64,000 nt of DNA from the NCBI GenBank assembly GCA_964652205.1, contig CAZZAO010000003.1, positions 15,196 to 79,195 of the forward strand, given 5' to 3'. The stretch is from an uncultured Anaerolineaceae bacterium (GTDB taxonomy: Bacteria; Chloroflexota; Anaerolineae; Aggregatilineales; Phototrophicaceae). The notes beneath the pieces are model-generated. The model had not been told where the DNA came from. It saw only the letters and a list, made by a program, of their open reading frames with translations, and did not search any database. The stretch's first letter is position 1. Each line of letters starts with the position of its first letter. Made by a program: the position numbers and the translations under genes. Positions 11,852 through 45,164 of the stretch are shown one piece after another.

Positions 11852-11853
11852 CC

Positions 11854-13818: not shown

Positions 13819-13935
13819 CGTGCCTGTCCTTGCTCGGCCTAAGACTCACAAAGGTTTGCGATAGGGTGTCAGGAGCCACACCCCTGTTCAGCCGCCTATC
13901 GTTCACCGCCCGCCATGAGAGCGCAGCGCAGCCTT

Positions 13936-15933
13936 TCACTCGACGGGAGCCGCAGGCTGCGGAGGGGCCGGGGATGAGAGAGCGCAATCTGCCCTCACCG
14001 TAATATCCGTCAGGCGCGCGTAGCTGCCGTCCGGCTGGCCGTCCGCCCCCAGAGTCGGCAGGCGCTGCTGCGTTTCGACCTCGTACAACCCGGCGATCAG
14101 CCGATAGGTCCCCGGCGCGGCGCTGGCGGGAATCTGAAGCTCGAAGGTCGGCCCCAGTATAACCTCGCCGGGATCGACCCAGGTATTGGTCGGGCGGCGA
14201 TCCGCCGGGACGCCATCGTAGCCGACGATCTGCGCCGTCTCGTCGGCGTTGACGAGCTGGGTGAACGCCTGATACTGCTGTTTCGGCGTCGCCAGCCGCT
14301 GCCACGTCAGCGCGGTCGTGAGCGTCGCGCCGGGGCAGTAGCTGGTTTTCGACAGATCGTAGGCAATCAGGCCGATCTCGCCGCTGAAGTTGGCGCTCGT
14401 CCGGTGCATCTTCGACATATCGACCTTGAACATCGAGAAGGTGTCGCGCGTCATCACGACCGGCCCCAGATAGCGGTCGGCGAACTTTTGCAGTTCCTTG
14501 AAGTAGCCCCAGCCGCTCTGCATGATCTGGAGCGCCGGGGGATGGTCAAACAGGTTCTGCATGAACTCGATCCGGTTGATGACGACCGGGAAAGCTGACG
14601 AGTCCATCAGGAAACCTTCGTAACCGGCGCTGACGCAGCTTGGCCGCCCGGTCAGATAGTCGAAGTAGAGCACGCCGCCCCACGGCCAGATGCAGTCAGT
14701 CGGTTTGGTGTTGGCCTCGATGTAATCGACCATCGGGGCGATCACCGCGTCACGCGCGGGCGGGCTGGCGCTCCAGGCGGGCAGCCCGACCCAGCGATAG
14801 CCGAACCAGACCGCGCCGACCAGCGCCGCCGCGCTGCCGACCGCCTGCCACGGCAGACTCATCCGCCGTAGGGTCGGCACAGCCAGCGCGATCAGCGCGA
14901 CCAGCGCGGGAACCATCTGCCGATAGTATTCGGAGCGCATCCCGCGCGCCAGACTGGCCCCGGCGAAGCTCAGAACCACCCAACCTATCGCCGTCCAGAC
15001 GAGCGGATCGCGCCTGCGCCGCGCCAGCAGCACCAGCGCTGCGCCGAGCGCCAGCAGGAAAAACGGGGCCATGCGCGGAACCGTCGAGCCGAGGAAGTAG
15101 TCCTGAAACAGCTCCAGCCGCTCCTGCGTGAACAGCCACTGGCCGTCGGCGCGAAAGACGTACTGCGAGGCCGACTGGAAAACGAAAAACCACATCCGTT
15201 CGGCGACGCCGTTGCTCAGCGCCCAGACGACAAACGCGCCCGCAGTCAGCGCCGCGCCGACCAGCGCCAGCAGAGGGGCCAGCAGCCTGCGCCGCCAGCT
15301 TCCCGGCGCGCGCAGAAACGCGAAGGCCAGCAGGACGGGAAGCTCGAAGGCCAGCGGCTGCTTGGTCATCACGCCGCAGCAAAAGGCGACACCCGCCAGC
15401 AGCATCCACGGCCAGCGTCCGCGTCCGAGCAGCGCCAGCGTCATGGCCGTCGCGCCCATCGCCGCCATCAGAATGGTCGTCTCCGGGTAGGCCAACTGCG
15501 CGCTGAACAACAGCGCCAGCGCCCCGCCGACCAGCCCGCCGAGCTTCGACCGGCTGAGCGCATAGGCCGCCGCCGCGCCGCTGACGGCGAAGAAAAACTC
15601 CATGAAGAGCGTGCTGGCCTCAATCGCCGCGACGGTGTTGCCGAGCGCCTGAACGAACGGGGCCATAACGAAGAACATGAACGGCGGCTTGGTGTCCCAG
15701 ATGTCGCGGTAGAGGACGCCGCCAGTCGCCTGAATCCGCGCCGTTTCCGCGAACCAGCCGGTATCGAGGTACGTCAGGTCGAAAGTGATCGGCAGGCGAT
15801 AGTAGCGCGAGGCCGTCAGCGTCACGCACCAGACGAGCAGCGCGGCCAGCAGCGCCGCGACCAGCAGCCGAAGCGCCTGACTGGACGGGGTCGGACGCGC
15901 CGTGCGCCAATCGGCCTGCGATGGGTCGGTCAT
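13936..15933 (-). CDS. GT-C fold membrane glycosyltransferase, tandem paralogue C
   Basis: 665 aa. Motif YRDIWDTKPPFMFF. C-terminal ANFSGEIGLIAYDL...YCPG...IAGLYEVETQ...ADC, plus a short Pro-rich tail. Confidence 0.9.
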   Translation of the reverse strand: MTDPSQADWRTARPTPSSQALRLLVAALLAALLVWCVTLTASRYYRLPITFDLTYLDTGWFAETARIQATGGVLYRDIWDTKPPFMFFVMAPFVQALGNTVAAIEASTLFMEFFFAVSGAAAAYALSRSKLGGLVGGALALLFSAQLAYPETTILMAAMGATAMTLALLGRGRWPWMLLAGVAFCCGVMTKQPLAFELPVLLAFAFLRAPGSWRRRLLAPLLALVGAALTAGAFVVWALSNGVAERMWFFVFQSASQYVFRADGQWLFTQERLELFQDYFLGSTVPRMAPFFLLALGAALVLLARRRRDPLVWTAIGWVVLSFAGASLARGMRSEYYRQMVPALVALIALAVPTLRRMSLPWQAVGSAAALVGAVWFGYRWVGLPAWSASPPARDAVIAPMVDYIEANTKPTDCIWPWGGVLYFDYLTGRPSCVSAGYEGFLMDSSAFPVVINRIEFMQNLFDHPPALQIMQSGWGYFKELQKFADRYLGPVVMTRDTFSMFKVDMSKMHRTSANFSGEIGLIAYDLSKTSYCPGATLTTALTWQRLATPKQQYQAFTQLVNADETAQIVGYDGVPADRRPTNTWVDPGEVILGPTFELQIPASAAPGTYRLIAGLYEVETQQRLPTLGADGQPDGSYARLTDITVRADCALSSPAPPQPAAPVE

Positions 15934-25920: not shown

Positions 25921-27042
25921 ATGATCGACGTCAAAGAAGTCAAGGAACTGCTCGAACAAATCGGAGATCAAACACTCAGCCTGTACCTTGATGTCAGCGA
26001 AGGCAAGCTCGAAAATCAGGCGGTCGCGCCGCAGTGGAGCGTGTGGCTCAAGAATACGCTGCGCGATCTGGGCAGCGGCCTGACCCGTGAAGACGCTCAG
26101 GCATGGCCGCAGATTCGTGACCGGGTCGAAGGCTATTTCGACCCGTACAGCGCGGGCTACAAGCCGCAGGCGCGCGGGATTGTGCTGTTCACCAGTCCCT
26201 CGTATCAGCAGGCTTACGAGCTGCCGATCTCCTTCAAAAATCAGGCGTCGTTCGGCAAGCCCCACGTCGCGCCGCTGTTGTGGGCGATTGACGAGTACGA
26301 GCCGTATCTGGTCGCCATGGTCGATAAGGAAAAGGCGCGCTTTTTCAGCAGTTATCTGGCGTCCATCGACTTTCAGGACAGCCTCGAAATCGACCTCGAC
26401 CAATACGATTTCGCCGAGCGCCCGATGAGGAATGTCACCATCGGCGGCAACGAAGGCGGCGGTGGAACGAACAAGGAAGCGTGGCAGCGGATGATCAACG
26501 AGCACGAGCGGCGCTTCTACCGGCAGGTAGCGGATACGGCGGTTAAACTGGCCGACCAGCAGAAGGCCGAGCGCATCATCATCGCTGGCTCGGAAGACTC
26601 GCTGCACGAGGTCTACAACCTGTTCAGCGAGCACGATCAGACGCGAATCGCCGGGATGGCAGCCATCCCGATGCAGTCAACGACTGCCGAAATCTTCCAG
26701 CAGATTTTGCCGGTGGCGCAGGCGTTCGAGCGCGAGCAGGAGATGACGCTGGTTTCCGAAGTGATCGACTTCGCCCGATCAGGCGGGCGCGGCGCGCTGG
26801 GGCGCGAGGCGGTCGATAGGGCGATATCGATGCAGCGCGTCGAACGGCTGATCCTGCCGTGGCCGGTCGACAGCCCTTCGATGAATGAGTATCTGGAAAC
26901 GCTCGCTTACCGAGCGCTCCAGCTCAACAGTCAGGTTGAGCTGGTTCATGAGGCCGCCGCAGATCGACTGACAGCGGAAGGGGGCGTCGCGGCGCGGCTG
27001 TATTACGCCATCGACGCCCGACCGGACAGCGACGGACATTAA
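25921..27042 (+). CDS. Bacterial eRF1-fold protein (baeRF1 / host-attachment / VLRF1-like family), paralogue 1
   Basis: 373 aa. The central loop TIGGNEGGGGTNKEAWQRMINEHERRFYRQVADTA aligns with the eRF1 GGQSALRFARLR...Y.RKVAE region, but there is no GGQ. It is followed by an eRF1 domain-3-like ERIIIAGSEDSL... Confidence 0.75.
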   Translation: MIDVKEVKELLEQIGDQTLSLYLDVSEGKLENQAVAPQWSVWLKNTLRDLGSGLTREDAQAWPQIRDRVEGYFDPYSAGYKPQARGIVLFTSPSYQQAYELPISFKNQASFGKPHVAPLLWAIDEYEPYLVAMVDKEKARFFSSYLASIDFQDSLEIDLDQYDFAERPMRNVTIGGNEGGGGTNKEAWQRMINEHERRFYRQVADTAVKLADQQKAERIIIAGSEDSLHEVYNLFSEHDQTRIAGMAAIPMQSTTAEIFQQILPVAQAFEREQEMTLVSEVIDFARSGGRGALGREAVDRAISMQRVERLILPWPVDSPSMNEYLETLAYRALQLNSQVELVHEAAADRLTAEGGVAARLYYAIDARPDSDGH

Positions 27043-28286: not shown

Positions 28287-29360
28287 ATGCGATTGAAATC
28301 CCTGATCGGTTTTATGATCCTTGCGCTGAGTCTGAGCATGATTTCCACGGCTTTGGCGCAAAGCCCCAGCGTCGAATGGAGCGCCTGGAACGCGCAGATC
28401 ACAGCGCATCCGGGCAGCGCCCCGCTCGACATCGCCGAGACCCAGATCATTAAGGTGACGGGCGGGACGCTCCACGGCGGGACGCGCAATTTCTCGCAGC
28501 CCGTCAATATCCAGAGCGTCTATCTGGCGCTCAACGGCAGCCAGCCAACTCAGCTTTCACAGGGCAGCAGCCCCGGCAGCTACAGCGTCAGCAGCGCCAA
28601 CGGCGATGTGGTCGTCAATTACGAACTGCCGCGAGCGGCTAACGTCGGCGACAGCTTCGCCGTCCAGATCAACTACACCGTCAACCCGACGACGGCGGGC
28701 CTGATCGACTGGAACGTTGTCCCCGGTACGCATCCCGGCCCGGTCAACAGCAGCAAAGTCACGATCAACTTTCCCGACGGGCAGGCTCCGAGCGCCGATT
28801 TCGTCCGCGTGCCGCAGGGCAGCGGAACTGTCACCGCGTCGGGCAGCAGCATCGTCGTCCAGTCGCAGGGCGTGATTCCCGCCAACCAGCCGTTCGAGAT
28901 TCAACTCCCCTACGGCGCGAACGTCGGCCAACCGGCCAACGGCAACAGCGCCCCGGTGCAGAACGCGCCGGTACAGAATGCCCCGATCCAGAACGCGCCC
29001 GCAAGTGGCGCGACCGGCACGAGCAATGACAGCGGCGGCATCCTCGGCAGCCTCCTGCCGATCCTGTGCATCATCGGCCTGTTAGTGATCTTCGGCGGCA
29101 GCTCGCTGCTGCGCGGCCTGCTCGGCGGCGTTCTGGGCGGCGCGGTCGGGGGCGCGCTCGGCAGGGGCGGCAATTCTGGCGGCGGTATTTTTGGCGGCAG
29201 GGGCGGCAGTTCCGGCGGCGGCATCTTCGGCGGCGGGAGTGGCAATTCCGGCGGCAGCGGGTCGAGCGGGCGTGGCTTCCGCCAGAGCGCCGACCAGAAC
29301 CGGGAAGTGCCGACCATCAACAATGATAAAGAATCCGGCGGCGGCGCGGGCTTCCATTAG
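28287..29360 (+). CDS. DUF2207-like membrane protein (signal peptide, extracytoplasmic beta domain, TM, Gly-rich cytoplasmic tail)
   Basis: 357 aa. Signal peptide MRLKSLIGFMILALSLSMISTALA. (APVQN)3 repeats. TM segment ILGSLLPILCIIGLLVIFGG. The tail is rich in GGxxGG repeats (GGNSGGGIFGGRGGSSGGGIFGGGSGNSGGSGSSG). Confidence 0.75.
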   Translation: MRLKSLIGFMILALSLSMISTALAQSPSVEWSAWNAQITAHPGSAPLDIAETQIIKVTGGTLHGGTRNFSQPVNIQSVYLALNGSQPTQLSQGSSPGSYSVSSANGDVVVNYELPRAANVGDSFAVQINYTVNPTTAGLIDWNVVPGTHPGPVNSSKVTINFPDGQAPSADFVRVPQGSGTVTASGSSIVVQSQGVIPANQPFEIQLPYGANVGQPANGNSAPVQNAPVQNAPIQNAPASGATGTSNDSGGILGSLLPILCIIGLLVIFGGSSLLRGLLGGVLGGAVGGALGRGGNSGGGIFGGRGGSSGGGIFGGGSGNSGGSGSSGRGFRQSADQNREVPTINNDKESGGGAGFH

Positions 29361-29369
29361 AGGCAGGGC

Positions 29370-31160
29370 ATGAAAAACAGATCGCAGCACTTCATCGGCC
29401 TTGTGCCGCTCATCGTCGCGCTTTGTCTTCTGCTGCCGATCTCGCCAGCCTCGGCAGCGACCCGGCTCAACTATAACCAGCCTGCGACCGGCACCCTGAG
29501 CGCCGGTCAGCAGGCCGAGTACACCTTCAGCGGCCAGGCCGGCGACAAGCCGATCATCAGGGCCAACGCCCACGGCGGCGACATCGTCCCTTATGTCGCG
29601 CTCTACGACCCGGCAGGCCATCTGATCGGCGAGGACATCAACGGCGGGCTGAAGGGCAACGCGCTGCTCAAGGGGCAGGTGCTGGCCGCTGACGGGACGT
29701 ATAAGGTGGTGGTCGCCAATAAGGCGCAGAACGGCAGCGGCAATTACAACCTGCTCATCAGCGAGGAACAGCGGCAGGTGTTCTTCGACGGCCCCGCGAC
29801 CGGAACCGGCGGCAAGCAAGCCTACCAGCTTTCGCAGCCGTGGGATCACAGCAATATCACCTACCATATCCTCAACAAGCTGCCGCAGTTTAGCGAGCAG
29901 GAAACCCGCGCCATGTTCGCGCAGGCGTTCCAGTCGTGGGCGAGCCTGTCAACGCTGCGCTTCACCGAAGTGGCCGGACAGGGGGACATCAACATTCAGT
30001 TCGGGCAGATCGACGGGCAGTTGAATATCCTCGGCGAAACCTGCCCGCCCTATCAGCCGTGCGATTCCGGCAGCGTGACCTTCGACAGCGACGAGAACTG
30101 GACGCTCGGCCAGCCGACCGGCTTCGGCGATATTTCGCTGCTCGGCGTCGCCAGCCACGAATTCGGTCACGCCATCGGGATGCTGCATACCGACGACCAG
30201 AACGCGCTGATGTTCCCGGAATACAGCCCCTACGTGCTCGCGCCCTCGCAGGACGATGCGGCAGGCGTGGCGCGGCTTTACGGCCCCGGCAACGGCACGG
30301 TTTCCAATCCGCCGGTCGGCAGCAATCCGCCATCGACCAACCCGAACCAGATGCAGGTGACGGACAGCCTCGACAACTCGCACTATACGACTTTCTGGGA
30401 TTTTGACGTGGTCGCGGGCGACACGGCGACGATCACCATGAGCGCGACGCAGGGCGACCTCGACTCGTTCCTCGTGCTGCTCGACGCCAACAATCAGGTG
30501 ATCGCCTACGACGACGACAGCGGCGGTGGCCGGAACGCGGCGCTGGCGAATCTGAAGTTCCCGTATGCCGGGACGTACACCGTCGCAGCAACGCGCTACT
30601 TGCAGGCGCAGGGCTACACCGCCGGAAGCTACCGGCTGTCGATCCAGTACGACGTTGGCGCAGGACAGAACACTGTCCCGGCGACGACCGTCGCCAGCGC
30701 GCCGCCGGTCAGCGGCACGGGCGGCGTGCAGGCCAGCGCCGGTCAGCCGTCGCAGCTTCAGCAGCTTCCCTCACTCGACAGCGTCCTGACGAGCGCCTTC
30801 GCCGACAGCGCCTCACCGGGCAAGCAAACGCGGCAAGGCACGGTCAGCGCCGGTCAGTCGTATAGCTGGCAGCAGAACTGGTGCGCCACGAACTCGCCAA
30901 CGCTTGCGGCCAATCTCCAGCAGATCAGCGCGACATTCGCTATCAACGGCCAGCCCGTCAGTCCGAGCGCCGTCTCACAGACGAGCGCAGCCAACGCGCC
31001 CTATCAGTGTCAGGTGTTCTTCGTCGTGCTGTCGAACTGGACGCGCGGCAGCGTCACCCTGACGACGACGCTGACGCTCAGGGGCGCGGTCTTTGACGGC
31101 GAGACTATCTATCCCGCTGGAGACTACGTCACCGAGTATCAGCTTCAGGCGAGCGGATAA
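29370..31160 (+). CDS. Secreted matrixin-type (M10) zinc metalloprotease with pre-peptidase C-terminal (PPC)-like beta domains
   Basis: 596 aa with a signal peptide. Zinc motif HEFGHAIGMLH plus a Met-turn region (ALMFP). PPC-like segments lie N-terminal (YNQPATGTLSAGQQAEYTFSG...YNLLIS) and C-terminal (DFDVVAGDTATITMS...GSYRLSI). It starts 9 nt after the DUF2207-like gene. Confidence 0.9.
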   Translation: MKNRSQHFIGLVPLIVALCLLLPISPASAATRLNYNQPATGTLSAGQQAEYTFSGQAGDKPIIRANAHGGDIVPYVALYDPAGHLIGEDINGGLKGNALLKGQVLAADGTYKVVVANKAQNGSGNYNLLISEEQRQVFFDGPATGTGGKQAYQLSQPWDHSNITYHILNKLPQFSEQETRAMFAQAFQSWASLSTLRFTEVAGQGDINIQFGQIDGQLNILGETCPPYQPCDSGSVTFDSDENWTLGQPTGFGDISLLGVASHEFGHAIGMLHTDDQNALMFPEYSPYVLAPSQDDAAGVARLYGPGNGTVSNPPVGSNPPSTNPNQMQVTDSLDNSHYTTFWDFDVVAGDTATITMSATQGDLDSFLVLLDANNQVIAYDDDSGGGRNAALANLKFPYAGTYTVAATRYLQAQGYTAGSYRLSIQYDVGAGQNTVPATTVASAPPVSGTGGVQASAGQPSQLQQLPSLDSVLTSAFADSASPGKQTRQGTVSAGQSYSWQQNWCATNSPTLAANLQQISATFAINGQPVSPSAVSQTSAANAPYQCQVFFVVLSNWTRGSVTLTTTLTLRGAVFDGETIYPAGDYVTEYQLQASG

Positions 31161-31194: not shown

Positions 31195-32205
31195 TCAGGG
31201 ACGGTTGCTGACCGAGATAATTTCGGCCATGACGGCGAGGGCGATCTCTTCGGGCGATTTGGCGCCAATCGAGAGGCCAATCGGCGCGTGCAGGCGGGCG
31301 AAGTCCTGATCGGTCAGGCCGCGCTGGCGCAGTCGTTCGAGGCGCAGCGCGTGGGTGCGCCTGCTGCCAAGCACGCCGATGTAAGCCGCATCGCTCCTGA
31401 GCGCAAACTCAAGCGCCGGATCGTCGATCTTGGGATCGTGAGTCAGCAGGGCGAGAAAGGTATTCCGCCCGACCGGTATTGAGGCAAGCGCGCGGTCGGG
31501 ATACTCATGGATGAGGGTTACGCCGGGGAACCGTTCGGCGGTCGCAAATGCCTGACGCGGGTCGATCAGCGTGACGGCCATGCCGAGCACGCGCGCATAC
31601 TGGCTGAGGGCGATAGCGATGTGAACGCCGCCCACCATAATCAGATGCCGCTGTTCCTGCGCCGGGTCAATCATGACAGCGCAGCCGAGCAGCGACTCCC
31701 GCCCCGGCGTCGCCTGATGGGGCGCGTCGGCCAGCGCCCTGACCTGCGCGTCGGGCAGGATGGCGTTCGCGTAAACGAGGCTGCCGCGCTGGTCGAGCGC
31801 CAGTTTCGCGCCCGCCGCCGCCCCTTCGACGACCGTCAGGGTGGTCAGGGCCGGGTGAGCAGCGGCAGCGCGCCACCAGGCGGTATCCAGCGGCTCGACC
31901 CAGATGCTGATTTCGCCGCCGCACGAGAGGCCCACGTCCCACGCCTGTTGATCGCTGACGCCGAAATGCAGCAGGCGCGCCTGGCTATCAGCCAGCACCT
32001 CAAGCGCCTGATCGACCACGGCGGCCTCGACGCAGCCGCCGCTGACCGAGCCGATCATCTGCATATCGGCGCTGACGGCCATTTTCGCTCCGGCCTGACG
32101 CGGCGCTGACCCCCACGTTTCGACCACGGTAGCGAGCGCAACCGGTTTGCCAGCGGCCAGCCACTGATCGACGGTTTCTACAAGCTCACGCATTGTGTTA
32201 GCCAC
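31195..32205 (-). CDS. XdhC/CoxI-family molybdenum-hydroxylase maturation (accessory) protein
   Basis: 336 aa. N-terminal XdhC_CoxI motif (KPVALATVVETWGSAPRQAGAKMAV...GSVSGGCVE) and a Rossmann-like C-domain (HLIMVGGVHIAIALSQYARVLGMAVTLIDPR). Confidence 0.9.
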   Translation of the reverse strand: MANTMRELVETVDQWLAAGKPVALATVVETWGSAPRQAGAKMAVSADMQMIGSVSGGCVEAAVVDQALEVLADSQARLLHFGVSDQQAWDVGLSCGGEISIWVEPLDTAWWRAAAAHPALTTLTVVEGAAAGAKLALDQRGSLVYANAILPDAQVRALADAPHQATPGRESLLGCAVMIDPAQEQRHLIMVGGVHIAIALSQYARVLGMAVTLIDPRQAFATAERFPGVTLIHEYPDRALASIPVGRNTFLALLTHDPKIDDPALEFALRSDAAYIGVLGSRRTHALRLERLRQRGLTDQDFARLHAPIGLSIGAKSPEEIALAVMAEIISVSNRP

Positions 32206-32330: not shown

Positions 32331-32384
32331 AACGGCGAACTTCCACTTGTAATACGGTCTTTTCAGGCGCTATGCCGATTGGAG

Positions 32385-32753
32385 ATGCAAATCGTGGCCG
32401 ATAAAGAAGCAATGAAAGCATTTTATGACCGCCAGCTCGATTTTATCGCCAGGAAAGACATCGAAGGGCTGATCGACAACCAGTACACCCCGGACGCCGA
32501 GCTGCTGAATTTTGATTACTATATCAAGGGCGAGAAGGCGCTGAAGGACTATTTCCGCAGTTACATCGACGGCCTCGGCTACATTAAGCTGATCTCGACC
32601 GACAAGTTCTCGGTCGGCGACGACTCGATGATGTTCGAATCGACGGTTGAGGTCGCTGGCGGAATCGCCAGAGTTTATGATGTGATGCTGATGCGCGACG
32701 GCAAGATCTGGCGACACTTCGCCGGGCTGCTCGGTTTCACGCCGAAGTCGTAG
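32385..32753 (+). CDS. NTF2/SnoaL-like small protein (module N1 of three paralogues)
   Basis: About 120 aa. KAFYDRQLDFIARKDIEGLIDNQYTPDAELLNFDYYIKGEKALKDYF...STDKF...FESTVEV...RVYDVMLMRDGKIWRHF aligns position by position with the C-terminal half of the 32949 gene product and with the 33773 gene product. The start is uncertain: TTG 32379, ATG 32385 or GTG 32394. Confidence 0.8.
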   Translation: MQIVADKEAMKAFYDRQLDFIARKDIEGLIDNQYTPDAELLNFDYYIKGEKALKDYFRSYIDGLGYIKLISTDKFSVGDDSMMFESTVEVAGGIARVYDVMLMRDGKIWRHFAGLLGFTPKS

Positions 32754-32948
32754 AGCAACCTCTCCCTCACCCCAACCTCTGGTCAGGCCCGCTGCGCGGC
32801 ACGAGCGAAGCCCTAACCACTTCGTCTCCCGGCGGGAGAGGGGCTTCATTTCCCCTCTCCCGGCATCGAGTCAGGTCACGGCAGGCTGGCCGATGGACGG
32901 GTGATTGAGAGAGCCTCATCGTTCGCTGATTGAAGAACGAGGAACGTT

Positions 32949-33758
32949 ATGCAGGTATCTGTAACGGTCAATAATCAGACGCACAGCGCCGAGGTTGAGC
33001 CGCGGCTGCTGCTGGTCGACTTTCTGCGCGAGCAGGTCGGGCTAACCGGCACAAAGGTGGGCTGCGATACCGGCCAGTGCGGCGCGTGCGTCGTGCTGAT
33101 GGACGGCGTCTCGGTCAAGAGCTGCGCGCTGATCGCCGCGCAGGCCGACGGCAGCACGATCACAACCATCGAAGGTGTGTCGGCGATGGGCCATCTGAAC
33201 GCATTGCAGGCCGGTTTTCAGGCGATGCACGCCGTCCAATGCGGCTTCTGCACTCCCGGCATGATGATGTCACTCTCCGACCTGATCGAGCGCAGCCCGA
33301 ACGCGACTGAGCCGGAAATCCGCGAATGGCTGGCTGGCAACCTGTGCCGCTGCACCGGCTACGAGAACGTCATCCGCGCAGTCGAAGCGTCACGCAGTAT
33401 CGCAGCCAACCCGGCGCATATGCTGCCGGATTCCACCTTCAAAGTCCTGTACGAGCAGCAGGTCATAGCGATGCAGTCAGGCGACATCGACGCCTGGGCT
33501 GAGTTCTACAGTGACGACATCATCCTGACCACCTTCGAGGGCGTCATCAGCGGTAAGGAAGCGCTCAAGGGCTACTTCGCCGACTATCTGAACCAGCGGC
33601 GCAGCATCGAGATTCTCTCGACCGACCGATTCATCGAAGCGCCGAACGCCTTCTATGTCGAAGCGACCGTGCGGGTCGATGGCAAGGTGACGCACATCTA
33701 CAACGAGTTCGTCGTCCAGTCCGGCAAGATCACGCATCAGTTCGCCAGCGTGAAATAA
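32949..33758 (+). CDS. Mo-hydroxylase small [2Fe-2S] subunit (CoxS/XdhC-small-type) fused to a C-terminal NTF2/SnoaL-like module (N2)
   Basis: 269 aa. Residues 1 to about 158 carry both 2Fe-2S motifs ([12 protein letters not shown]... and [12 protein letters not shown]...LCRCTGY). Residues about 165-269 are paralogous to N1 and N3 (KVLYEQQV...GKEALKGYF...STDRF...[29 protein letters not shown]). Confidence 0.9.
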
Positions 33759-33772
33759 GCGGGAGCAGAAGC

Positions 33773-34186
33773 ATGATTGTTGTGAGCAACACCCCGGCTC
33801 CGCTGCAATTTGACCCGAACAGCCGGATTAAAATCGCCATCGACACGCCCCGGAAGGCGTTCTACGAGGAACACGTCCGCTACCTCGACGCCGGAGACTT
33901 CCGCCAACTGGTGGAAACGCATTACGCCGCAGACGCCATCGTTATGTCAACCGAGTACGTCGTCGTGGGGCGCGAGGCGCTGTTACGCCACTTCGCCAAG
34001 TACACCGGGCTGATGGCGCATCTCTCGGTCGTAACGACCGATAAATGGATCGAGTCGGAAACTACGTTCGCCTTCGAGGCGACGTCGCGCACCCAGTGGG
34101 GGCTATCGCGCGTACACGATGCTTTTGTCCTGCGCGACGGCCTGATTTACCGCCACTTCACCGGCAGCATCCCCATGGTGCGCTAG
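33773..34186 (+). CDS. NTF2/SnoaL-like small protein (module N3)
   Basis: 137 aa. KAFYEEHVRYLDAGDFRQLVETHYAADAIVM...GREALLRHF...TTDKW...FEATSRT...RVHDAFVLRDGLIYRHF. Confidence 0.8.
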   Translation: MIVVSNTPAPLQFDPNSRIKIAIDTPRKAFYEEHVRYLDAGDFRQLVETHYAADAIVMSTEYVVVGREALLRHFAKYTGLMAHLSVVTTDKWIESETTFAFEATSRTQWGLSRVHDAFVLRDGLIYRHFTGSIPMVR

Positions 34187-34202
34187 ACGAGGAATAACCC
34201 TG

Positions 34203-36596
34203 ATGGCTGAACACGTCTTTGGAAAGCCCGTCAAGCGCAAGGAAGACCCGGCAATGCTTCAGGGCCACGCGCCCTTCATCGCCGACATCACTCTGCCGAA
34301 CATGGCGTACATGGAAATCCTGCGCAGCCCGCACGCGCACGCGCGCATTCTCTCGGTCGATACGTCGGCAGCGGAAAAGATGCCCGGCGTCCTCAAGGTC
34401 ATCACCGGCAAGGATTTGATTGGTCGCATGAGGCCGCTGCCGTGCGTCTGGATTCCCGGCGGCGTCGAGAGCCATTTCCCGCTGCATCCGCAGAACGTCC
34501 CCGGCGCAGGGATGCCGCTGCAATCCGAAAAAGTCCTGTTCATCGGCGACGGGGTGGCGGCGATTGTGGCCGAGACTCGCTATCAGGCGCAGGACGCCCT
34601 GAGCGCGATCAAGGTCGAGTATGAGGTGCTGGAAGCCGTCACGCAGGCCGATCTGGCGGTCGCTGACGGCGCGCCGCAGCTTCACGACGTCGTGCCGAAC
34701 AACCTCAATGCCTACTGGACGTGCGGCGACCCGGCAGCGACCGATCAGGCGATCAAACAGGCCGAAGTGGTCGTCGATATCGACATCCTCAACCAGCGCA
34801 CGATCAACAGCCCGATTGAGCCGCGCGGCGCGGTCGGGGCCTACGACGCGGTCACGGGGGATTTCACGCTGTACGCCAGCACCCAGTCCCCGCACAACCA
34901 CCGCCTGATCCTGTGCTTTTACGTCCTCAACCTGCCGCTGAACAGGCTGCGGGTGATTTCGCCGACGGTGGGCGGCAGCTTCGGCACCAAAGGTTATGTC
35001 TACCCGGATATGCCGCTGGTGCTGTTTCTGGCGCGCGAACTGAACCGCCCGATCAAGTGGGTCGACTCGCGGGAAGGCTATATGCGCTCGACCGTCCAGG
35101 GCCGCGATCACAAGCAGCACGCACAGATGGCCGGAACGCGCGACGGCAAAATTACCGCGCTGCGCTGCACCAGCTACGCCAATCTCGGCGCGTACCCATC
35201 GACCATCGGCCCCGGCGTCGCCACCGCCATGATGGGCCGCAGCATCACCGGCTCCTACGCCATCCCTGACGCTTTCTGCGAGGTCTACGCCGCCTTTACC
35301 AACGTCGTGCCGCTGGGCGCGCAGCGCGGCTCCGGGCGCGCGGAAGCGACCTTCATGGTGGAAAGGCTGATCGATCTGTACGCCGCCGAAATCGGCATCG
35401 ACCCGGCGGAAGTCCGACTGAAGAACATGGTGCAGCCCGAACAGATGCCGTATGACAACGGCCTCGGCTGGCTGTATGACTCCGGCGATTACCCGCGCCT
35501 GCTGAAGCGCGCGCTGGAGATGGCGGGCTACGCCGGCATCCCGGCACTCAAGGAAGAAGCAAAAAGACGCGGCAAGCGGCTCGGCGTGGGCATGGCGAGT
35601 TTCGTCGCCGTCAGCGGCGTCGGCCCTTCCCCACGGATGGCGAAGGAAGGGATGCTCGGCGGGACGTGGGAAGCAGCCAGCATTCGCATCGAACCCACCG
35701 GGGAAGTGGTCTGCACGGTCGGCTCGAAGCCGCACGGCCAGTCGCATGACACGGTGTTCGCGCAGATCGTGGCCGACCAACTGAGCATCCCGGTCGAACG
35801 GATTATCGTTCGCCATTCGGATACGGTCGGGACGCCGTTCGGTCAGGGCAGCTACGGCAGCCGCTCGTTCAGCATGGCTGGCCCGGCGCTGTACATCACC
35901 GCCGAAAAGCTGATCCAGAAAGCCTGCGTCGCGGCGGCGCATCTCCTCAAAGCCGACCCGGCGGAACTGGAGTTCGAGAACAGCCGCTTTTATGTCCGCA
36001 GCGATCTGAGTCGCGGCATCACCCTGCTGGAAACTTCGCTGGCGCTGTTTTACGCCTGGGATATCCCCGCCGGTGTCGAACCCTGTCTGGAAGCGACGAC
36101 CTTCTGGGACGCGCCTGACTTTAATTACCCGAACGGCGCGCAGGTGGCTATCGTCGAGATCGACGAGGAGAGCGGCGAGATCGAACTCAAGCGGCATATC
36201 GCCGTCAGCGACGTCGGCACTATCGGCAACCCGATGGTGATCGAGGGACAAATTCAGGGCGGCATCGTCCACGGGCTGGGACAGGCGCTGTTCGAGCAGG
36301 CGATCTACGATGAGGAAGGCCATCTGTTGAGTAACTCGCTCGAAAACTACGCCCTGCCGAAAGCGCCGGGGCTGCCGCACTTTGAACTGGACTACGTGAT
36401 GACGCCGACGCAGCATAACCCGCTCGGCTCAAAGGGCGCGGGCGAAGTCGGCACGGTCGGCGCGACGGCGGCGATTGGCAACGCCGTCTGCGACGCGCTG
36501 CGCGACTATGGCGTTAAACATCTGGACATGCCGTACACGCCGGAAAAGCTCTGGCACGCCATGCAGGCCCTGCCTTCACCCCCGGCCTCTGGTTAG
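34203..36596 (+). CDS. Mo-hydroxylase large molybdopterin-binding subunit (xanthine dehydrogenase/CoxL family; substrate unknown)
   Basis: 797 aa. Typical N-terminal a/b hammerhead (GKPVKRKEDPAMLQG...YMEILRSPHAHARI). The active-site loop reads GAQRGSGR where family members usually have GAYRG(A/P)G(R). The C-terminal catalytic-Glu motif GSKGAGEVG is present. The form-I CODH AYxCSFR motif is absent. Confidence 0.95.
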   Translation: MAEHVFGKPVKRKEDPAMLQGHAPFIADITLPNMAYMEILRSPHAHARILSVDTSAAEKMPGVLKVITGKDLIGRMRPLPCVWIPGGVESHFPLHPQNVPGAGMPLQSEKVLFIGDGVAAIVAETRYQAQDALSAIKVEYEVLEAVTQADLAVADGAPQLHDVVPNNLNAYWTCGDPAATDQAIKQAEVVVDIDILNQRTINSPIEPRGAVGAYDAVTGDFTLYASTQSPHNHRLILCFYVLNLPLNRLRVISPTVGGSFGTKGYVYPDMPLVLFLARELNRPIKWVDSREGYMRSTVQGRDHKQHAQMAGTRDGKITALRCTSYANLGAYPSTIGPGVATAMMGRSITGSYAIPDAFCEVYAAFTNVVPLGAQRGSGRAEATFMVERLIDLYAAEIGIDPAEVRLKNMVQPEQMPYDNGLGWLYDSGDYPRLLKRALEMAGYAGIPALKEEAKRRGKRLGVGMASFVAVSGVGPSPRMAKEGMLGGTWEAASIRIEPTGEVVCTVGSKPHGQSHDTVFAQIVADQLSIPVERIIVRHSDTVGTPFGQGSYGSRSFSMAGPALYITAEKLIQKACVAAAHLLKADPAELEFENSRFYVRSDLSRGITLLETSLALFYAWDIPAGVEPCLEATTFWDAPDFNYPNGAQVAIVEIDEESGEIELKRHIAVSDVGTIGNPMVIEGQIQGGIVHGLGQALFEQAIYDEEGHLLSNSLENYALPKAPGLPHFELDYVMTPTQHNPLGSKGAGEVGTVGATAAIGNAVCDALRDYGVKHLDMPYTPEKLWHAMQALPSPPASG

Positions 36597-36652
36597 GCCC
36601 GGTCGGCGCTACCTGATCTAAGGTTCAAACCCTTCGGACGGAGGACGTTGGT

Positions 36653-37498
36653 ATGTTGCCAGCAAGTTTCAACTACGTCGCGCCGAGCAGCGTTCTGGCT
36701 GCCGTCGAGGCATTGAGTACGACACCGGGCGCGCGTTTCGCCGCCGGAAGCGTTCATCTGCTGATCGACCTGAAAATGCGCCGGGTCAACCTGAGCACGC
36801 TGGTCGATCTACGCAAAATCCCTGAACTCTACGGCGTCATGACCGAGGGCGAAGGGCTGAAGATCGGCGCGATGACGTCGCTGCGCGCCGTGATGGACGA
36901 CAGGGCGATCCAGTCGCGTTACGGCGCGCTGGCCGAGGCCGCTGCCCGGAGCGGCGACGCGCAGATGCGCAATATGGAAGCCATCGGCGGGGCGCTGGCC
37001 TATGCGTCGCCAGCGAGCGCCATCGCGGCGGCAGTGCTGGCGCTCGACGCCACGATCTGCGCCACCGGAATACAGGGCGCGCGCCGCATCCCTGCCGCGA
37101 CGTTTTTTACCGGCGACAGAACGACTGCGCTGGCGCCTGACGAGATCATCACGGCGCTGTCGCTGCCGAAGCCGTTCACGGGCAGCGTTTACGAACAGCT
37201 TCGCCACCCTGCGCATCTGGGCGCGATCTGCGGCGTGGCTGCCGCTGTGCCAAAGGCGGCTGACGGCAGCCTCGAGCGGACACGCATCGGCGTGACCGGC
37301 GCGACCGACCATGCCTTCCGGCTCACAGCCGTCGAGGATGCGCTGACCGGAAGCACGCTCGACGCGAGCAGCATCGCTTCAGCGGCGTCACGCGCGGCGG
37401 AAACCCGCGACTACCGCTCCGACTTACAATTCTCCGCCGACTACCGCGCGCATCTCGTCACGGTGCTGACGAAACGGGCGTTGTCGCGGCTCACCTAA
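36653..37498 (+). CDS. Mo-hydroxylase medium FAD-binding subunit (CoxM/XdhB-type)
   Basis: 281 aa. FNYVAPSSVLAAVEAL..., AGSVHLLIDLKMR (a variant of AGGxSL), RNMEAIGGALAYASPASAIAAAVLALDA, and a C-terminal CO_deh_flav_C-like region. Confidence 0.9.
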   Translation: MLPASFNYVAPSSVLAAVEALSTTPGARFAAGSVHLLIDLKMRRVNLSTLVDLRKIPELYGVMTEGEGLKIGAMTSLRAVMDDRAIQSRYGALAEAAARSGDAQMRNMEAIGGALAYASPASAIAAAVLALDATICATGIQGARRIPAATFFTGDRTTALAPDEIITALSLPKPFTGSVYEQLRHPAHLGAICGVAAAVPKAADGSLERTRIGVTGATDHAFRLTAVEDALTGSTLDASSIASAASRAAETRDYRSDLQFSADYRAHLVTVLTKRALSRLT

Positions 37499-37554: not shown

Positions 37555-37704
37555 GGGCTTCGCAGGAGAGGGCGAAGCGGCTGCGCGTCGAACAGACGCG
37601 CTTCGTCTTCGCTTATAGTCAGCCTACATCCCTGTCAAGCCCCCTGCTGGCACTCAATTTCCAGCCTAACGCGCTCTGGGCGGTTAGCTGGCTTATCTGA
37701 TTCA

Positions 37705-37972: not shown

Positions 37973-39277
37973 GTGACACCTGAGCCACACAGCCCATCAG
38001 GACCTGCGCTGGAAAAAATTTACCGGCGCAATTTCTTCATTTTTCTGATCGACAACGTGCTGTTCAGTCTGGCGATGAATATCCTCGGCCCGACGACGCT
38101 GGTTCCTGACTTCATTCGCCACCTGACGCGCTCGGAAATTCTGATCGGCCTGTCGTCGAGCATGTTCGATTTCGGCTGGCCGCTGCCGCAGTTGTTCGTC
38201 GCGCGCTATATCGTCCGCTCGGAGCGCAAGAAGTGGTGGTTTATCGGGCCGAATATCCCGATTCGCTTCGTCATGCTGACGTTCGCCATCGTGACGATTC
38301 TGCTCGGCAAAGAGCAGCCGGGGCTGATCCTCGCGGCCTTCCTGCTGAGCTACGGGATCGCGTCGGTCGGTGATGGCATCGTTGGCGTGCCGTGGTCTGA
38401 CCTGATCGGGACGAGCCTCGACGGTCGCTGGCGCGCGCGGATGTTCGGCTTTACGTCGGCGGTGACGGGCGTCATTATGCTCGGCCTCGCGCCGCTGATC
38501 GGCCTCGTCTTGAGCGATCCACGGCTGATCTTCCCCAACAATTACGCCGCCGTCTATCTGGCCGCCGGGGTGCTGTTCGTCATCTCGATTTTTCCGGGGA
38601 TGCTGATCCACGAGCTTCCCGGCGGCAAGGTTGTCGAGCAGGTCGCGCCGCTGCGCGAATTTCTGCCGACGCTCGGTCGCGTGCTGCACCGCGATTCGGC
38701 CTTCCGCGCCATCCTCATCACGCGCATGATCGCCAGCCTGTTTGCGATGGCCGGGCCGTTCTACATCGGCTTCGCCACCGTGCAGTTGGGCCTCTCCAGC
38801 ACGGTCGCCGTGCCGACGCTGCTGGCGATGCAGACCATCGGCAGCGTGCTCGGCGCGCTGCTCTACACCTGGCTCGGCGCGAAGAATAACCTGCTCTACA
38901 TTCGGCTGGCGCTGGTCGGCGCGGCCTTCCTGCCGATCAGCGCGCTGCTCGCCGCGCGCGTCGGGCCGGGGCCGCTCTATCTGGGCTTTCTGGCGTCGGG
39001 GCTGACGCTGGCGAACCTGTTCGCCAGCTTTCAGAACTGGGTCATCAGCTACGCGCGCCATGACCAGCGCCCGATTTACACCGGCCTGTTCAACACGGTT
39101 TCCGCCGGGGTTGGGCTGATCGCGCCGTTCATCGCCGGAACTATCGCGCAGCAGGTCGGCTATGAAGCGCTGTTCGTCGTCGCGCTGGTGATGGCGCTGG
39201 CCGCGCTGTTCGTCACGCTGCGCTTCATCCGTCCGCCGAACGCGGAGATCGTGGCCGAAATCGTCGCCGCCGACTGA
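37973..39277 (+). CDS. MFS transporter
   Basis: 434 aa with about 12 predicted TM helices. GTG start with GAAGG upstream. The antisense 354-aa ORF is rejected. Confidence 0.85.
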   Translation: MTPEPHSPSGPALEKIYRRNFFIFLIDNVLFSLAMNILGPTTLVPDFIRHLTRSEILIGLSSSMFDFGWPLPQLFVARYIVRSERKKWWFIGPNIPIRFVMLTFAIVTILLGKEQPGLILAAFLLSYGIASVGDGIVGVPWSDLIGTSLDGRWRARMFGFTSAVTGVIMLGLAPLIGLVLSDPRLIFPNNYAAVYLAAGVLFVISIFPGMLIHELPGGKVVEQVAPLREFLPTLGRVLHRDSAFRAILITRMIASLFAMAGPFYIGFATVQLGLSSTVAVPTLLAMQTIGSVLGALLYTWLGAKNNLLYIRLALVGAAFLPISALLAARVGPGPLYLGFLASGLTLANLFASFQNWVISYARHDQRPIYTGLFNTVSAGVGLIAPFIAGTIAQQVGYEALFVVALVMALAALFVTLRFIRPPNAEIVAEIVAAD

Positions 39278-43577: not shown

Positions 43578-43907
43578 TCAGTAATGACGCTGCTGCGCGC
43601 GCCGGTCACGAATCTGTCGTTCAGCAGCCTCTAGAGCGCCATTCAAGGCGGCTCTGAACTGCTCACTTTGCTCAGTCGCGGCGATTTGCGCCGCTCCCAT
43701 ATAGACGACGATAGTGACTTCATAGATGTGGGGTGTCACACGAGCCTGCGCCGGCTGCTTGAAGTTAACAACCGCGCCTGAAATATCGGTGTAGCCCTCG
43801 GCCAGCTTGCTGAGTCGGTCGACCGCCAGAGTATAGTACTCGTTTTCACTTTTCTTGATGTCGTCGATTTCATTATTGAATTCGACCGGGAAATTCGCGC
43901 TGTCCAT
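43578..43907 (-). CDS. Short HPF/RaiA (YfiA)-family ribosome-associated protein-like (Ribosomal_S30AE fold), 109 aa
   Basis: Start taken at ATG 43907 (MDSANFPVEF), with AGAGGGGA upstream. The beta-alpha-beta-beta-beta-alpha pattern is present. The C-terminal helix EQSEQFRAALNGALEAAERQIRDRR parallels, from my recollection, E. coli HPF EGQDMYAAIDGLIDKLARQLTKHKDK. There is no long-HPF C-terminal domain. Confidence 0.65.
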   Translation of the reverse strand: MDSANFPVEFNNEIDDIKKSENEYYTLAVDRLSKLAEGYTDISGAVVNFKQPAQARVTPHIYEVTIVVYMGAAQIAATEQSEQFRAALNGALEAAERQIRDRRAQQRHY

Positions 43908-43994
43908 TGTCTGTCCCCTCTTTGAACTGCTTAACGGCACCAGTCCTCGCAGCAACCGGGTTTGGTGTCTGCCTTTTTGGCCGGTGGAACAGGC

Positions 43995-45164
43995 TTAATA
44001 GCGGAGAAGCGCCGCAGCAGGTGAAGTGGCTGGCATTTCCGCCAGTGGCAGCGCATAGACGATTCCGCCGTTTCGGAGAGTCTGCATCGCGGCAAAATCC
44101 AGCAGCGCGAGGTCATCTTCCTGGCTTTGTCCATCCTGATAATGAACAACTTCCCCGCTATCAGGATTGAAGATGCCCCAGACCTGCGTATCGACGGCCA
44201 GAATGAGTTTGTCTACGCGCCCGTAAAAGGCTGCCGCGACAATTTCTTCAATGCGATCCGTGGCGTTTTCCGTGACGGCAAGCTCGTGATATTGCTCGAT
44301 CACCTTTTCCATCGCCTGACGGAAGTAAGGCTCGACGATGGGCCAGGTCTGTTCCTGGAGTTCTTCAGGGCGCAGCAGATCAGGATTGCCTGTGACCCCT
44401 TCCGGCATGATATTCGCGTATTCGCTGACCTGACGGTAAATCGGTAGCAGGTAATCGACACCCGCCAGAACAAGCGGTGCCTGCTCCTCACGAAAGACTT
44501 CTTTCAGCCCGGCATCGACCACATTAAGAAACTGCTCGATCCTGACCTTCTGATCTTCATCGCCCGGCCCCTGTCCATGAAACATGGCCGCCCGTTTGCC
44601 GCCCTGGGCTGTACTCGGCGATGTCCCCGAATGGAATTGCAGGTGTTTTTGCAGATTATCGGACTTGAGAGCTTCGTCCAGACTCCCCGGTACACCCTCT
44701 GGCAAATCAATTTGACCGACGCTGTGCCGGGTTCCTTCAAACAAACGAACTTCATTCTGACTGATTGCCAGAATGTAATAATGTCCGTTGTTGGTGAATA
44801 ACGGTAGAACCGGCTTGACGTAATAGGACTGAGCGATGACGAGCAGTTCTTCAACGCGAAAAGGCAGGTGATAGTAATGGAAGTCATCCTGGGCGATAAA
44901 GACCGCCAGAGCATCACGCTGATGCTGCCAGAAGTACGGCGCATTCAGTAAGGCCTGCGCCGGTTGGAGCAAGGCGCTCACCTGACGAGGCCCCATGCCC
45001 CTGTCCAGCAGACGCAGCTCGGCTTCTCGAAGCAGGTTTTTGAAGCGGATCGGGTCTTGCTGAGTATCCTGACCGGCGCGATGGGTCGGCAGGAAAATCG
45101 AGATACTCGGACTCCCGGTTTGCTGCGCCAATTCCTTGATCTGCTCTAACGTCAAGTTTTCCAT
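43995..45164 (-). CDS. Bacterial eRF1-fold protein (baeRF1 family), paralogue 2
   Basis: 389 aa. RBS GGAGGGAG. N-terminal TLEQIKELAQQTGSPSISIFLPTHRAG..., typical of baeRF families. Central loop AAMFHGQGPGDEDQKVRIEQFLNVVDAGL at the GGQ-loop position, with no GGQ. Domain-3-like C-terminal region (LVLAGVDYLL...). Confidence 0.75.
   Translation of the reverse strand: MENLTLEQIKELAQQTGSPSISIFLPTHRAGQDTQQDPIRFKNLLREAELRLLDRGMGPRQVSALLQPAQALLNAPYFWQHQRDALAVFIAQDDFHYYHLPFRVEELLVIAQSYYVKPVLPLFTNNGHYYILAISQNEVRLFEGTRHSVGQIDLPEGVPGSLDEALKSDNLQKHLQFHSGTSPSTAQGGKRAAMFHGQGPGDEDQKVRIEQFLNVVDAGLKEVFREEQAPLVLAGVDYLLPIYRQVSEYANIMPEGVTGNPDLLRPEELQEQTWPIVEPYFRQAMEKVIEQYHELAVTENATDRIEEIVAAAFYGRVDKLILAVDTQVWGIFNPDSGEVVHYQDGQSQEDDLALLDFAAMQTLRNGGIVYALPLAEMPATSPAAALLRY

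Follow-up and report, generated by a model that had tools for sequence, protein, structure and literature searches.

A molybdenum hydroxylase clade linked to a family of NTF2-like proteins, present as three paralogous modules in an uncultured Anaerolineaceae bacterium

A 64,000-nucleotide stretch of the genome of an uncultured Anaerolineaceae bacterium (GenBank assembly GCA_964652205.1, contig CAZZAO010000003.1, positions 15,196 to 79,195; referred to here as the window) encodes a molybdenum hydroxylase operon (window positions 32379-37498, plus strand) with three paralogous NTF2/SnoaL-like modules, one of which is fused to the [2Fe-2S] subunit. Comparison with related loci shows that partnership with NTF2-like proteins is a property of the whole clade of large subunits that carry the active-site loop GAQRGSGR, while the triple arrangement is a lineage-specific elaboration. 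We propose, at about an even chance, that the modules are dedicated accessory subunits on the enzyme, that the fused copy is a degenerate anchor, and that a small ligand, probably of carbonyl type, is held or processed by the two free copies.

The operon begins with N1, a free NTF2-like module of 124 amino acids (32379-32753; start codon TTG at 32379 or ATG at 32385). It is followed by S::N2, a protein of 269 amino acids (32949-33758, plus strand) in which residues 1 to 150 form a CoxS-type small subunit, S, with two [2Fe-2S] sites (32949-33398), and residues 151 to 269 comprise a linker and the second module, N2 (33399-33758). The third module, N3 (33773-34186, 137 amino acids), is again free and bears a conserved 24-residue N-terminal arm. 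The molybdopterin subunit L (34203-36596, 797 amino acids) and the flavin adenine dinucleotide (FAD) subunit M (36653-37498, 281 amino acids) complete the operon. Spacing is tight, with 14 nt between S::N2 and N3 and 16 nt between N3 and L. Upstream and divergent, on the minus strand, lies xdhC (31195-32205; Pfam XdhC_CoxI and XdhC_C), which encodes a chaperone for insertion and sulfuration of the molybdenum cofactor. All six open reading frames (ORFs) were found in the positions and order given by a preliminary description of this sequence, made from the letters alone.

Pfam assigns Fer2 and Fer2_2 to residues 5 to 146 of S::N2 and SnoaL_2 to residues 174 to 263; L contains Ald_Xan_dh_C, MoCoBD_1 and MoCoBD_2, and M contains FAD_binding_5 and CO_deh_flav_C. 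The cluster ligands of S (Cys39/44/47/59 and Cys98/101/133/135) are invariant at all eight positions across 73 fusion homologues. The operon thus has each feature of a three-subunit CoxSML enzyme belonging to the xanthine oxidase family (XOF): a two-cluster S, the L domains with their Gln and Glu, an FAD subunit and an XdhC factor. No further copies of S, L, M or N were found elsewhere in the 64-kb window. The operon sequence is also present in wastewater metagenomes.

The closest solved relatives of L are the large subunits of carbon monoxide dehydrogenases (CODHs), namely, 8UEM (M. smegmatis CoxL; 622 bits), 1FFU (532 bits) and 1N5W (499 bits). Quinoline 2-oxidoreductase (Qor; 1T3Q), 6-hydroxypseudooxynicotine dehydrogenase (7DQX) and the Sulfolobus glyceraldehyde oxidoreductase (4ZOH) follow at 379 to 405 bits. 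We aligned L to 8UEM, 1FFU, 1N5W and 1T3Q. In these alignments, the Mo-site Gln228 (in TQSPH, residues 227-231) and the catalytic Glu748 (in KGAGE, residues 744-748) correspond to the CODH Gln and Glu, and the active-site loop reads GAQRGSGR at residues 372-379 (35316-35339). Neither AYxCSFR nor a Cu-ligand Cys is present in L when it is aligned to the solved CODHs. The preliminary description had noted the GAGE glutamate, the unusual loop and the missing AYxCSFR motif, and the alignments locate each of these residues. The loop is two residues shorter than that of form I CODH (AYRCSFR) and equal in length to the Qor loop (GAYRGVGF). L also carries a clade-specific insert at residues 78-96 (PLPCVWIPGGVESHFPLHP). 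Our literature search on loop motifs beyond form I and form II returned nothing relevant.

We compared the enzyme with several named types, none of which fits. Form I Mo-Cu CODH was rejected on the missing AYxCSFR motif and on a TIGR02416 score of 642 bits against a cutoff of 991. Form II CoxL has the loop AYRGAGR, in which Tyr and Ala are replaced by Gln and Ser here. Xanthine dehydrogenase (XDH) models score far under their cutoffs (XdhA models, 396 against 780 and 361 against 916; pucD, 282 against 784). The glyceraldehyde/aldehyde oxidoreductase models (NF041018-20 and NF045664) were rejected as well (alpha, 578 against 790; beta, 206 against 350; gamma, 216 against 290; XdhC_rel_AOR, 224 against 350), and glyceraldehyde/aldehyde-oxidoreductase models are the nearest NCBIfam models for S, M and XdhC, though sub-cutoff. 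Indeed, every curated NCBIfam model, including those for CODH, glyceraldehyde dehydrogenase, XDH, 4-hydroxybenzoyl-CoA reductase (4-HBCR) and others, scores below its cutoff. Among ten scanned flanking ORFs between 25.9 and 45.2 kb we found no coxD, coxE, coxF or coxG; ORFs further out were not scanned.

CO is therefore an unlikely substrate, judging from the absence of a Cu-binding Cys loop, the sub-cutoff TIGR02416 score, and XdhC as the adjacent maturation gene with no other accessory genes adjoining. Xanthine is likewise unlikely on sequence grounds because all XDH models fall far under their cutoffs. Both results agree with the earlier suggestion that the substrate is probably neither CO nor xanthine. 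The operon shares with CODH-type enzymes (CoxSML/CutSML; 8UEM, 1N5W and 1FFU) the S/L/M architecture and the Mo-site Gln and Glu, but it differs from them in lacking the Cu loop, in having XdhC as its sole adjoining accessory gene, and in its NTF2 modules, which are unseen in solved members. Like 1T3Q, 7DQX and 4ZOH, it would be a non-CO member of the CODH-like branch with an XdhC-type Mo=S centre, and its loop is as long as that of Qor. Unlike these enzymes, it has Gln for Tyr in the loop and the insert PLPCxWxPGGxESHFPxHP, and none of the three has NTF2 partners.

To place the operon among its relatives, we searched 5.8 billion protein clusters with S::N2 and recovered approximately 77 clusters (90% identity) of full-length fusions of about 270 amino acids, down to 44% identity. 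Nearly all of these clusters are metagenomic, and the matches ranked below them are ordinary CoxS proteins of 155 to 170 amino acids. All names given to the fusions are automatic ones, for instance "carbon-monoxide dehydrogenase small subunit" or "nuclear transport factor 2 family protein." CoxS-NTF2 fusions are thus neither common nor functionally assigned. The preliminary description had named two outcomes that would speak against it, widespread and already assigned fusions or modules without a match to any NTF2-like profile, and neither was observed. We then divided the N domains of the fusions and scanned for type A in genome contigs and for type B in metagenome contigs. The scan with the type A N2 motif, with one genome per species (185,579 species), found five loci, all in metagenome-assembled genomes (MAGs): three from Anaerolineae, one from Chloroflexia and one from Trueperaceae.

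Local ORF and hidden Markov model (HMM) analysis of 54 related loci resolved four arrangements, types A to D, that tie one NTF2 family (the N family) to one clade of L. Type A, with the order N1 - S::N2 - N3 - L - M, is found in this window and in Anaerolineae, Chloroflexia and Trueperaceae. All three modules are present in all five type A loci that cover the region upstream of S, and nothing else around them is conserved. Type B has the order S::N - L - M and occurs in Anaerolineae, Gemmatimonadota and many metagenome contigs. It lies within a conserved gene cluster with a ThiJ-like gene, a thiamine pyrophosphate (TPP) enzyme, a weakly SnoaL_4-like gene of 150 amino acids, a PF07366 SnoaL gene, a GMC oxidoreductase, an N paralogue of 130 amino acids, DJ-1 and glyoxalase; a separate PF07366 gene was found in type B loci only. 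In type C, S is unfused and has a free N directly upstream (Dictyobacter arantiisoli, a deltaproteobacterial MAG and metagenome contigs). In type D, a free N lies upstream of an S::L fusion, a chain of about 960 amino acids (loci L040-L044, e.g., L042:8329-11217), with GPIRGSGR as the loop and Asp in place of the catalytic Glu (KGAGD).

Across types A to C, the signatures of L are near invariant: TQSPH(N/D)HR, GGSFGTKGY, LGAQRGSGR, ANLGAYPSTIGPGVATAM, GVGPSPRMAKEGMLGGTWE, KGAGE and the insert PLPCxWxPGGxESHFPxHP. That these are shared points to a common reaction in the three types. Among the best 120 homologues of L (at least 59% identity), GAQRGSGR is present in 115 and the insert in 109; cultured genera in this set include Dictyobacter, Archangium, Streptomyces, Actinoplanes, Sphaerisporangium, Kibdelosporangium and Streptosporangium. 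The GAQRGSGR clade as a whole ranges over Chloroflexota, Actinomycetes, Gemmatimonadota, Deinococcota and Myxococcota.

We next picked six loci through L alone, disregarding their NTF2 content (Streptomyces, Dictyobacter, Actinoplanes, Sphaerisporangium, the deltaproteobacterial MAG and a JGI contig). Each of them has an N-family member (50 to 143 bits against the family HMM), which adjoins S in Dictyobacter and the deltaproteobacterial MAG, is fused in the JGI contig and lies 3 to 6 kb off in the three actinomycetes. Because all six loci carry an N-family member, the partnership belongs to the whole clade and the triplication is an elaboration of one lineage. We considered and dropped "three NTF2 per locus" as a rule: there are four NTF2-like genes in type B loci, three from different families in Dictyobacter, and one in the Actinomycetes. 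The N family itself is small: a search of 1.84 billion proteins gives 280 clusters (50% identity) at E <= 1e-3 and 111 at 1e-10. In the full-text literature on NTF2/SnoaL proteins with CoxS or molybdenum hydroxylases, or with the conserved set of neighbours, we found no paper linking them.

The comparison also turned up other architectures. One N-family protein is a 292-amino-acid tandem of two modules (L030:1279-2157), and proteins of about 365 amino acids combine a C-terminal N module with an N-terminal 250 amino acids that have no Pfam match (L045-L048, e.g., L048:7164-8261). In many type B loci, L has an N-terminal phosphothreonine-binding forkhead-associated (FHA) domain, giving chains of 925 to 1002 amino acids (L002:9336-12302; P0208, P0209, P0218 and others), and a separate FHA gene precedes the FHA-bearing L (L002:8874-9311); this domain suggests control by Ser/Thr phosphorylation. 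In the Chloroflexia MAG (L001/L009: 9072-12517), the reading frames of L and M are broken into overlapping pieces, which probably reflects frameshift errors of long-read assembly rather than pseudogenes.

The preliminary description had called N1, N2 and N3 paralogous NTF2/SnoaL-like modules and had read a common motif string across them. In our alignment the same string is recovered, and BLASTP gives 31% identity for N1/N2 (E = 1e-17), 32% for N1/N3 (2e-24) and 32% for N2/N3 (2e-18). By these sequence comparisons, the three are true paralogues, far above chance. All three match SnoaL_2 (PF12680), N2 with 32.6 bits (above the 27-bit cutoff) and N1 and N3 with 24.7 and 26.6 bits (just under it). 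AlphaFold2 predicts N3 with a mean local confidence (pLDDT) of 90.3 and the topology H-H-E-E-H-E-E-E-E, and a Foldseek search of this model against the PDB returns ketosteroid isomerase (KSI)-fold, SnoaL-like (7E85) and limonene-epoxide-hydrolase structures at template modelling (TM) scores of 0.6 to 0.78. The NTF2 fold of N3, an alpha+beta cone with three helices and a curved sheet of six strands, is confirmed in the predicted model.

The modules were compared with several named families, of which the SnoaL cyclases, KSI and CoxG were rejected as homes for them. At E <= 1, none of N1, N2 and N3 matches the SnoaL polyketide cyclase family (PF07366), whose catalytic set is not conserved in them, and the modules have no Pfam match to Ring_hydroxyl_B. 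Of the KSI triad Tyr14/Asp38/Asp99, only the Asp99 equivalent is present (Asp116; family columns are given in N3 numbering throughout); the Tyr14 column holds His/Gln34, and the Asp38 column holds Ser/Thr/Asn59, with no acid. Limonene-1,2-epoxide hydrolase (LEH) is a recurrent Foldseek match at 18 to 22% identity; when its Asp101-Arg99-Asp132 triad and Tyr53/Asn55 were compared, a Lys/Arg91 and Asp116 pair was seen by sequence columns only. Membership in the CoxG family (SRPBCC, PF06240) was set aside on the NTF2 fold, the lack of an SRPBCC match and the polar pocket. No C-terminal helix follows the last strand in the AlphaFold2 models of S::N2 and N3.

For the whole S::N2 chain, AlphaFold2 gives a pLDDT of 91.5 and a predicted TM score (pTM) of 0.84. 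Because S alone makes up 55% of the chain (TMq 0.55), a pTM of this size in a two-domain chain implies that the predicted contact between S and N2 is confidently fixed. When this model was compared with the PDB by Foldseek, matches were confined to the S half, which is 51 to 52% identical to CODH CoxS. No solved XOF enzyme, therefore, has an NTF2 domain on S, in keeping with the earlier expectation that canonical enzymes of this family are without NTF2-like partners.

Identity between type A orthologues and the window is 75 to 79% for L, 64 to 75% for S, 64 to 74% for N3, 50 to 74% for N1, 32 to 52% for M and 43 to 54% for N2. By this measure, N3 is constrained like the Fe-S subunit, and the fused N2 is the loosest of the modules and the fastest evolving. 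The orthologue family of N3 is tight (61 to 94% identity).

The best solved relative of the modules by sequence is MtPC (7E85; E = 1.6e-4), a SnoaL-like protein of M. tuberculosis in which Asp97, the equivalent of KSI Asp99, points into the pocket (PMC9828297). MtPC Asp97 aligns to Asp116 of N3 and MtPC His109 aligns to His128. The published pocket residues of MtPC map by alignment to Tyr31, Leu38, Tyr77, Val87, Phe101, Ala103, Asp116, Phe118 and Thr130, and strand alternation puts Thr89, Lys/Arg91 and His128 beside them. Within this predicted pocket, Tyr31, Tyr77, Thr89, Lys/Arg91, Asp116 and His128 are conserved family-wide, and Thr130 is a conserved position as well. Asp116 and His128 are kept in N1 (as Asp101 and His113), in N3, in the fused N of type B, in the free N of types C and D and in the divergent 130-amino-acid paralogue (N130). 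In the six type A N2 domains, the Asp116 column is Asn (His in one) and the His128 column is Gln; the corresponding residues of the window S::N2 are Asn252 and Gln264.

A second family-specific set, Asp90, Glu102, Thr104 and Tyr/His115, alternates with the pocket residues and appears from its sequence pattern to lie on the outer face of the sheet, the usual NTF2 dimer surface. This set is missing in the actinomycete homologues that are not adjacent to S. MtPC, which dimerises through the sheet, is also the best structural match to the modules (Foldseek TM, 0.66 to 0.78) and shares the pocket Asp. Its pocket is hydrophobic, however, unlike that of the N modules; it is without the STDK/RF and Tyr31/Tyr77 residues, and it has no reported link to a molybdenum enzyme.

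Alongside the clade one repeatedly finds genes for ThiJ/DJ-1 proteins, glyoxalase, GMC oxidoreductase, a TPP enzyme and aldehyde dehydrogenase. In three phyla, it is accompanied by genes for STAS / RsbW-like (HATPase_c_2) / SpoIIE partner switching and for glycogen metabolism (isoamylase, GlgE and GlgB). These clade neighbours offer hints of reactive-carbonyl or stress-linked metabolism, and the glyceraldehyde/aldehyde-oxidoreductase models as the best-scoring ones for S, M and XdhC would suit a carbonyl substrate. The linked sets can be seen at L003:6084-9117, L049:1-2696, L052:1-2581 and 10346-14397, and L050:14073-16247 (Gemmatimonadota, Streptomyces, Sphaerisporangium and Dictyobacter).

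From these patterns we infer how the modules may be assembled, what the pocket may do and which class of compound it may see. The enzyme is an XOF molybdenum hydroxylase of the distinct and widespread GAQRGSGR clade; it would be cytoplasmic and, matured by XdhC, of the Mo=S rather than the Mo-Cu type. Its clade partner is a small NTF2 (SnoaL_2-like) family that is encoded right before S or fused to the C terminus of S and that would be dedicated to the enzyme and seated on it; in the lineage of the window this partner was triplicated. We read the modules as dedicated subunits because they are fused to or adjoin S, are tightly spaced, co-occur with L throughout the clade, belong to a small family, have a fixed S-N2 contact in the model and make up, with S, L and M, a minimal type A operon. 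N2, in which Asn and Gln have taken the place of the pocket Asp and the conserved His, would serve as an anchor on S, while N1 and N3 would keep a polar pocket lined by Thr, Lys/Arg, Asp, two Tyr and probably His. As is usual for NTF2 proteins, the outer sheet face is the probable surface through which N1 and N3 pair, whether with N2, with one another or both. The pocket would most likely hold the substrate or product of the Mo site or process it chemically by acid/base catalysis, for example, by tautomerisation, hydration or isomerisation. The genes that accompany the clade in other genomes suggest that this ligand is probably an aldehyde or other reactive carbonyl compound.

An extension of this proposal, which we consider rather improbable, is that N1, N3 and the S-tethered pseudo-enzyme N2 form one hetero-oligomeric NTF2 cap per S/L/M protomer, a five-chain machine in which a second active site or ligand chamber is coupled to the Mo/FAD site, and that the enzyme of the GAQRGSGR clade is linked to stress and acts on a trace substrate or a small reactive carbonyl outside those so far assigned to XOF enzymes.

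Several observations count against the modules being subunits of the enzyme that act on a carbonyl ligand. The actinomycete N homologue lies 3 to 6 kb from S, follows a gene for a cyclic nucleotide monophosphate (cNMP)-binding HATPase in two of three cases and lacks the STDKF and FEAT motifs; for these reasons, it may not be a subunit. Contig L026 has an N with GMC/DJ-1 genes and no molybdenum enzyme between them. Rosetta-stone fusions also join consecutive enzymes of a pathway. L is nearer to a true CODH (8UEM, 622 bits) than to any aldehyde oxidoreductase. The flanking-ORF scan found none of the carbonyl-metabolism, STAS/SpoIIE or glycogen neighbours in this window, and a substrate class taken from neighbours elsewhere is a guess. 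The pocket and outer-face assignments come from the MtPC alignment and strand alternation, and the ambiguous register of beta5 and beta6 leaves the position of His128 insecure. The structure predictions are of single chains (S::N2 and N3), not of a complex.

The preliminary description had put forward both catalytic and structural roles for the modules. In one other explanation, N1, N2 and N3 are soluble isomerases, hydratases or cyclases of the NTF2 type that act before or after the hydroxylation and the fusion serves co-expression or loose channelling, with no stable assembly. The polar and conserved pocket (Tyr, Tyr, Thr, Lys/Arg, Asp and probably His) suits such enzymes, the folds nearest to the modules are those of LEH, SnoaL-like proteins and similar NTF2 enzymes, additional NTF2 genes (PF07366 SnoaL and c3) stand amid clear catabolic enzymes in type B loci, and N does not adjoin S in Actinomycetes. 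Yet near-identical pocket residues in three paralogues make poor sense as three steps, and the loss of Asp and His would be odd in an enzyme retained by fusion. Nothing is conserved in type A loci apart from S, L, M and the N modules, the high pTM of the fusion speaks for a fixed contact, and the modules have neither a PF07366 match nor a conserved KSI Tyr14/Asp38 pair. On balance, we regard this explanation as unlikely. It is very unlikely, in our judgment, that the modules only stabilise or oligomerise the enzyme with empty pockets, as NTF2-fold beta subunits do in Rieske oxygenases. Those beta subunits of Rieske aromatic-ring dioxygenases are obligatory non-redox subunits of a multi-component oxidoreductase, but they belong to another enzyme class, assemble as alpha3beta3 homomers and are not known to have a conserved polar pocket. 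It is typical of structural hetero-oligomers that their subunits are paralogues with a homo-oligomer as ancestor, and both the family-specific patch on the apparent outer face (Asp90, Glu102, Thr104 and Tyr/His115; absent in the non-adjacent actinomycete homologues) and the conserved N-terminal arm of N3 would suit such a role. However, the predicted inward-facing polar residues are kept in all subfamilies but N2, and such constellations are usually lost in structural beta subunits.

The modules could instead be NTF2 cones that bind a quinone, another hydrophobic acceptor or a hydrophobic substrate and present it at the FAD site or the substrate funnel, in place of CoxG, though we hold this to be quite unlikely. 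In single-chain XOF enzymes (the XDH architecture), the FAD domain comes after the Fe-S domains; by this domain order, M could be close to a domain borne on the C terminus of S. CoxG families are absent from the gene lists of all nine loci with gene calls and from the genes beside the operon here. CoxG, which serves CODH and other XOF enzymes, is itself a small, cavity-bearing accessory protein with genetic linkage to these enzymes, at times as a fusion with CoxL; it is predicted to dock near FAD, and it carries menaquinone (PMC12202499). The likeness to the N modules is a possible functional analogy only: CoxG has an SRPBCC fold, a transmembrane anchor and a hydrophobic cavity, whereas the N modules are NTF2 proteins, soluble, with a polar pocket and several paralogues. 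N1, N2 and N3 are without the membrane anchor that CoxG needs for quinone extraction (PMC12202499), their pockets have several conserved charged or polar residues in contrast to the purely hydrophobic lining of CoxG or MtPC, and the loss of Asp and His from N2 suggests chemistry or polar recognition.

The noncoding parts and surroundings of the operon add a few observations. The gap between N1 and S (32754-32948) is 195 nt long, versus 48 to 104 nt in orthologous loci; its folding has a z score of -2.25, and it contains a G+C hairpin of 11 bp (32833-32862, plus strand) with no family match in Rfam. Between 30 and 40 kb, no molybdenum cofactor riboswitch or other RNA family was found, the sole match being a chance snoRNA (E = 0.29). 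A terminator-like hairpin 85 nt past the stop codon of M (37583-37601, plus strand) is a possible operon end, a weak candidate given that such sites are no more numerous in the region than expected by chance. The transporter gene of the major facilitator superfamily at 37973-39277 was rejected as an operon member, as it is not kept in other type A loci and the terminator-like hairpin precedes it. The ten flanking ORFs encode proteases, transporters and baeRF genes. Two bacterial eRF1-like genes of the baeRF family lie at 25921-27042 (plus strand) and 43995-45164 (minus strand), the second adjoined by a gene resembling the S30AE ribosome hibernation factor (43578-43955, minus strand). Just upstream of xdhC (28287-31160, plus strand) are genes for a DUF2207-like, Gly-rich membrane protein and a secreted matrixin (M10) protease with a PPC domain, which appear unrelated to the molybdenum operon.

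Soil, sludge and actinomycete genomes are rich in molybdenum hydroxylases of the CODH branch, which are routinely misannotated as CO dehydrogenase, an annotation that this finding would correct. GAQRGSGR and the insert PLPCxWxPGGxESHFPxHP provide a simple signature that defines one large clade among them, and linkage of this clade to a dedicated NTF2 partner family joins a known kind of enzyme to a new accessory system. Since cultured carriers exist (Dictyobacter arantiisoli and species of Streptomyces, Actinoplanes and Sphaerisporangium), experiments are possible. If the NTF2 modules are indeed subunits, CoxG would no longer be the only kind of small cavity protein attached to XOF enzymes, and the triplication, with its degenerate fused copy, would neatly illustrate how a subunit is duplicated and a pseudo-enzyme comes to act as an anchor.

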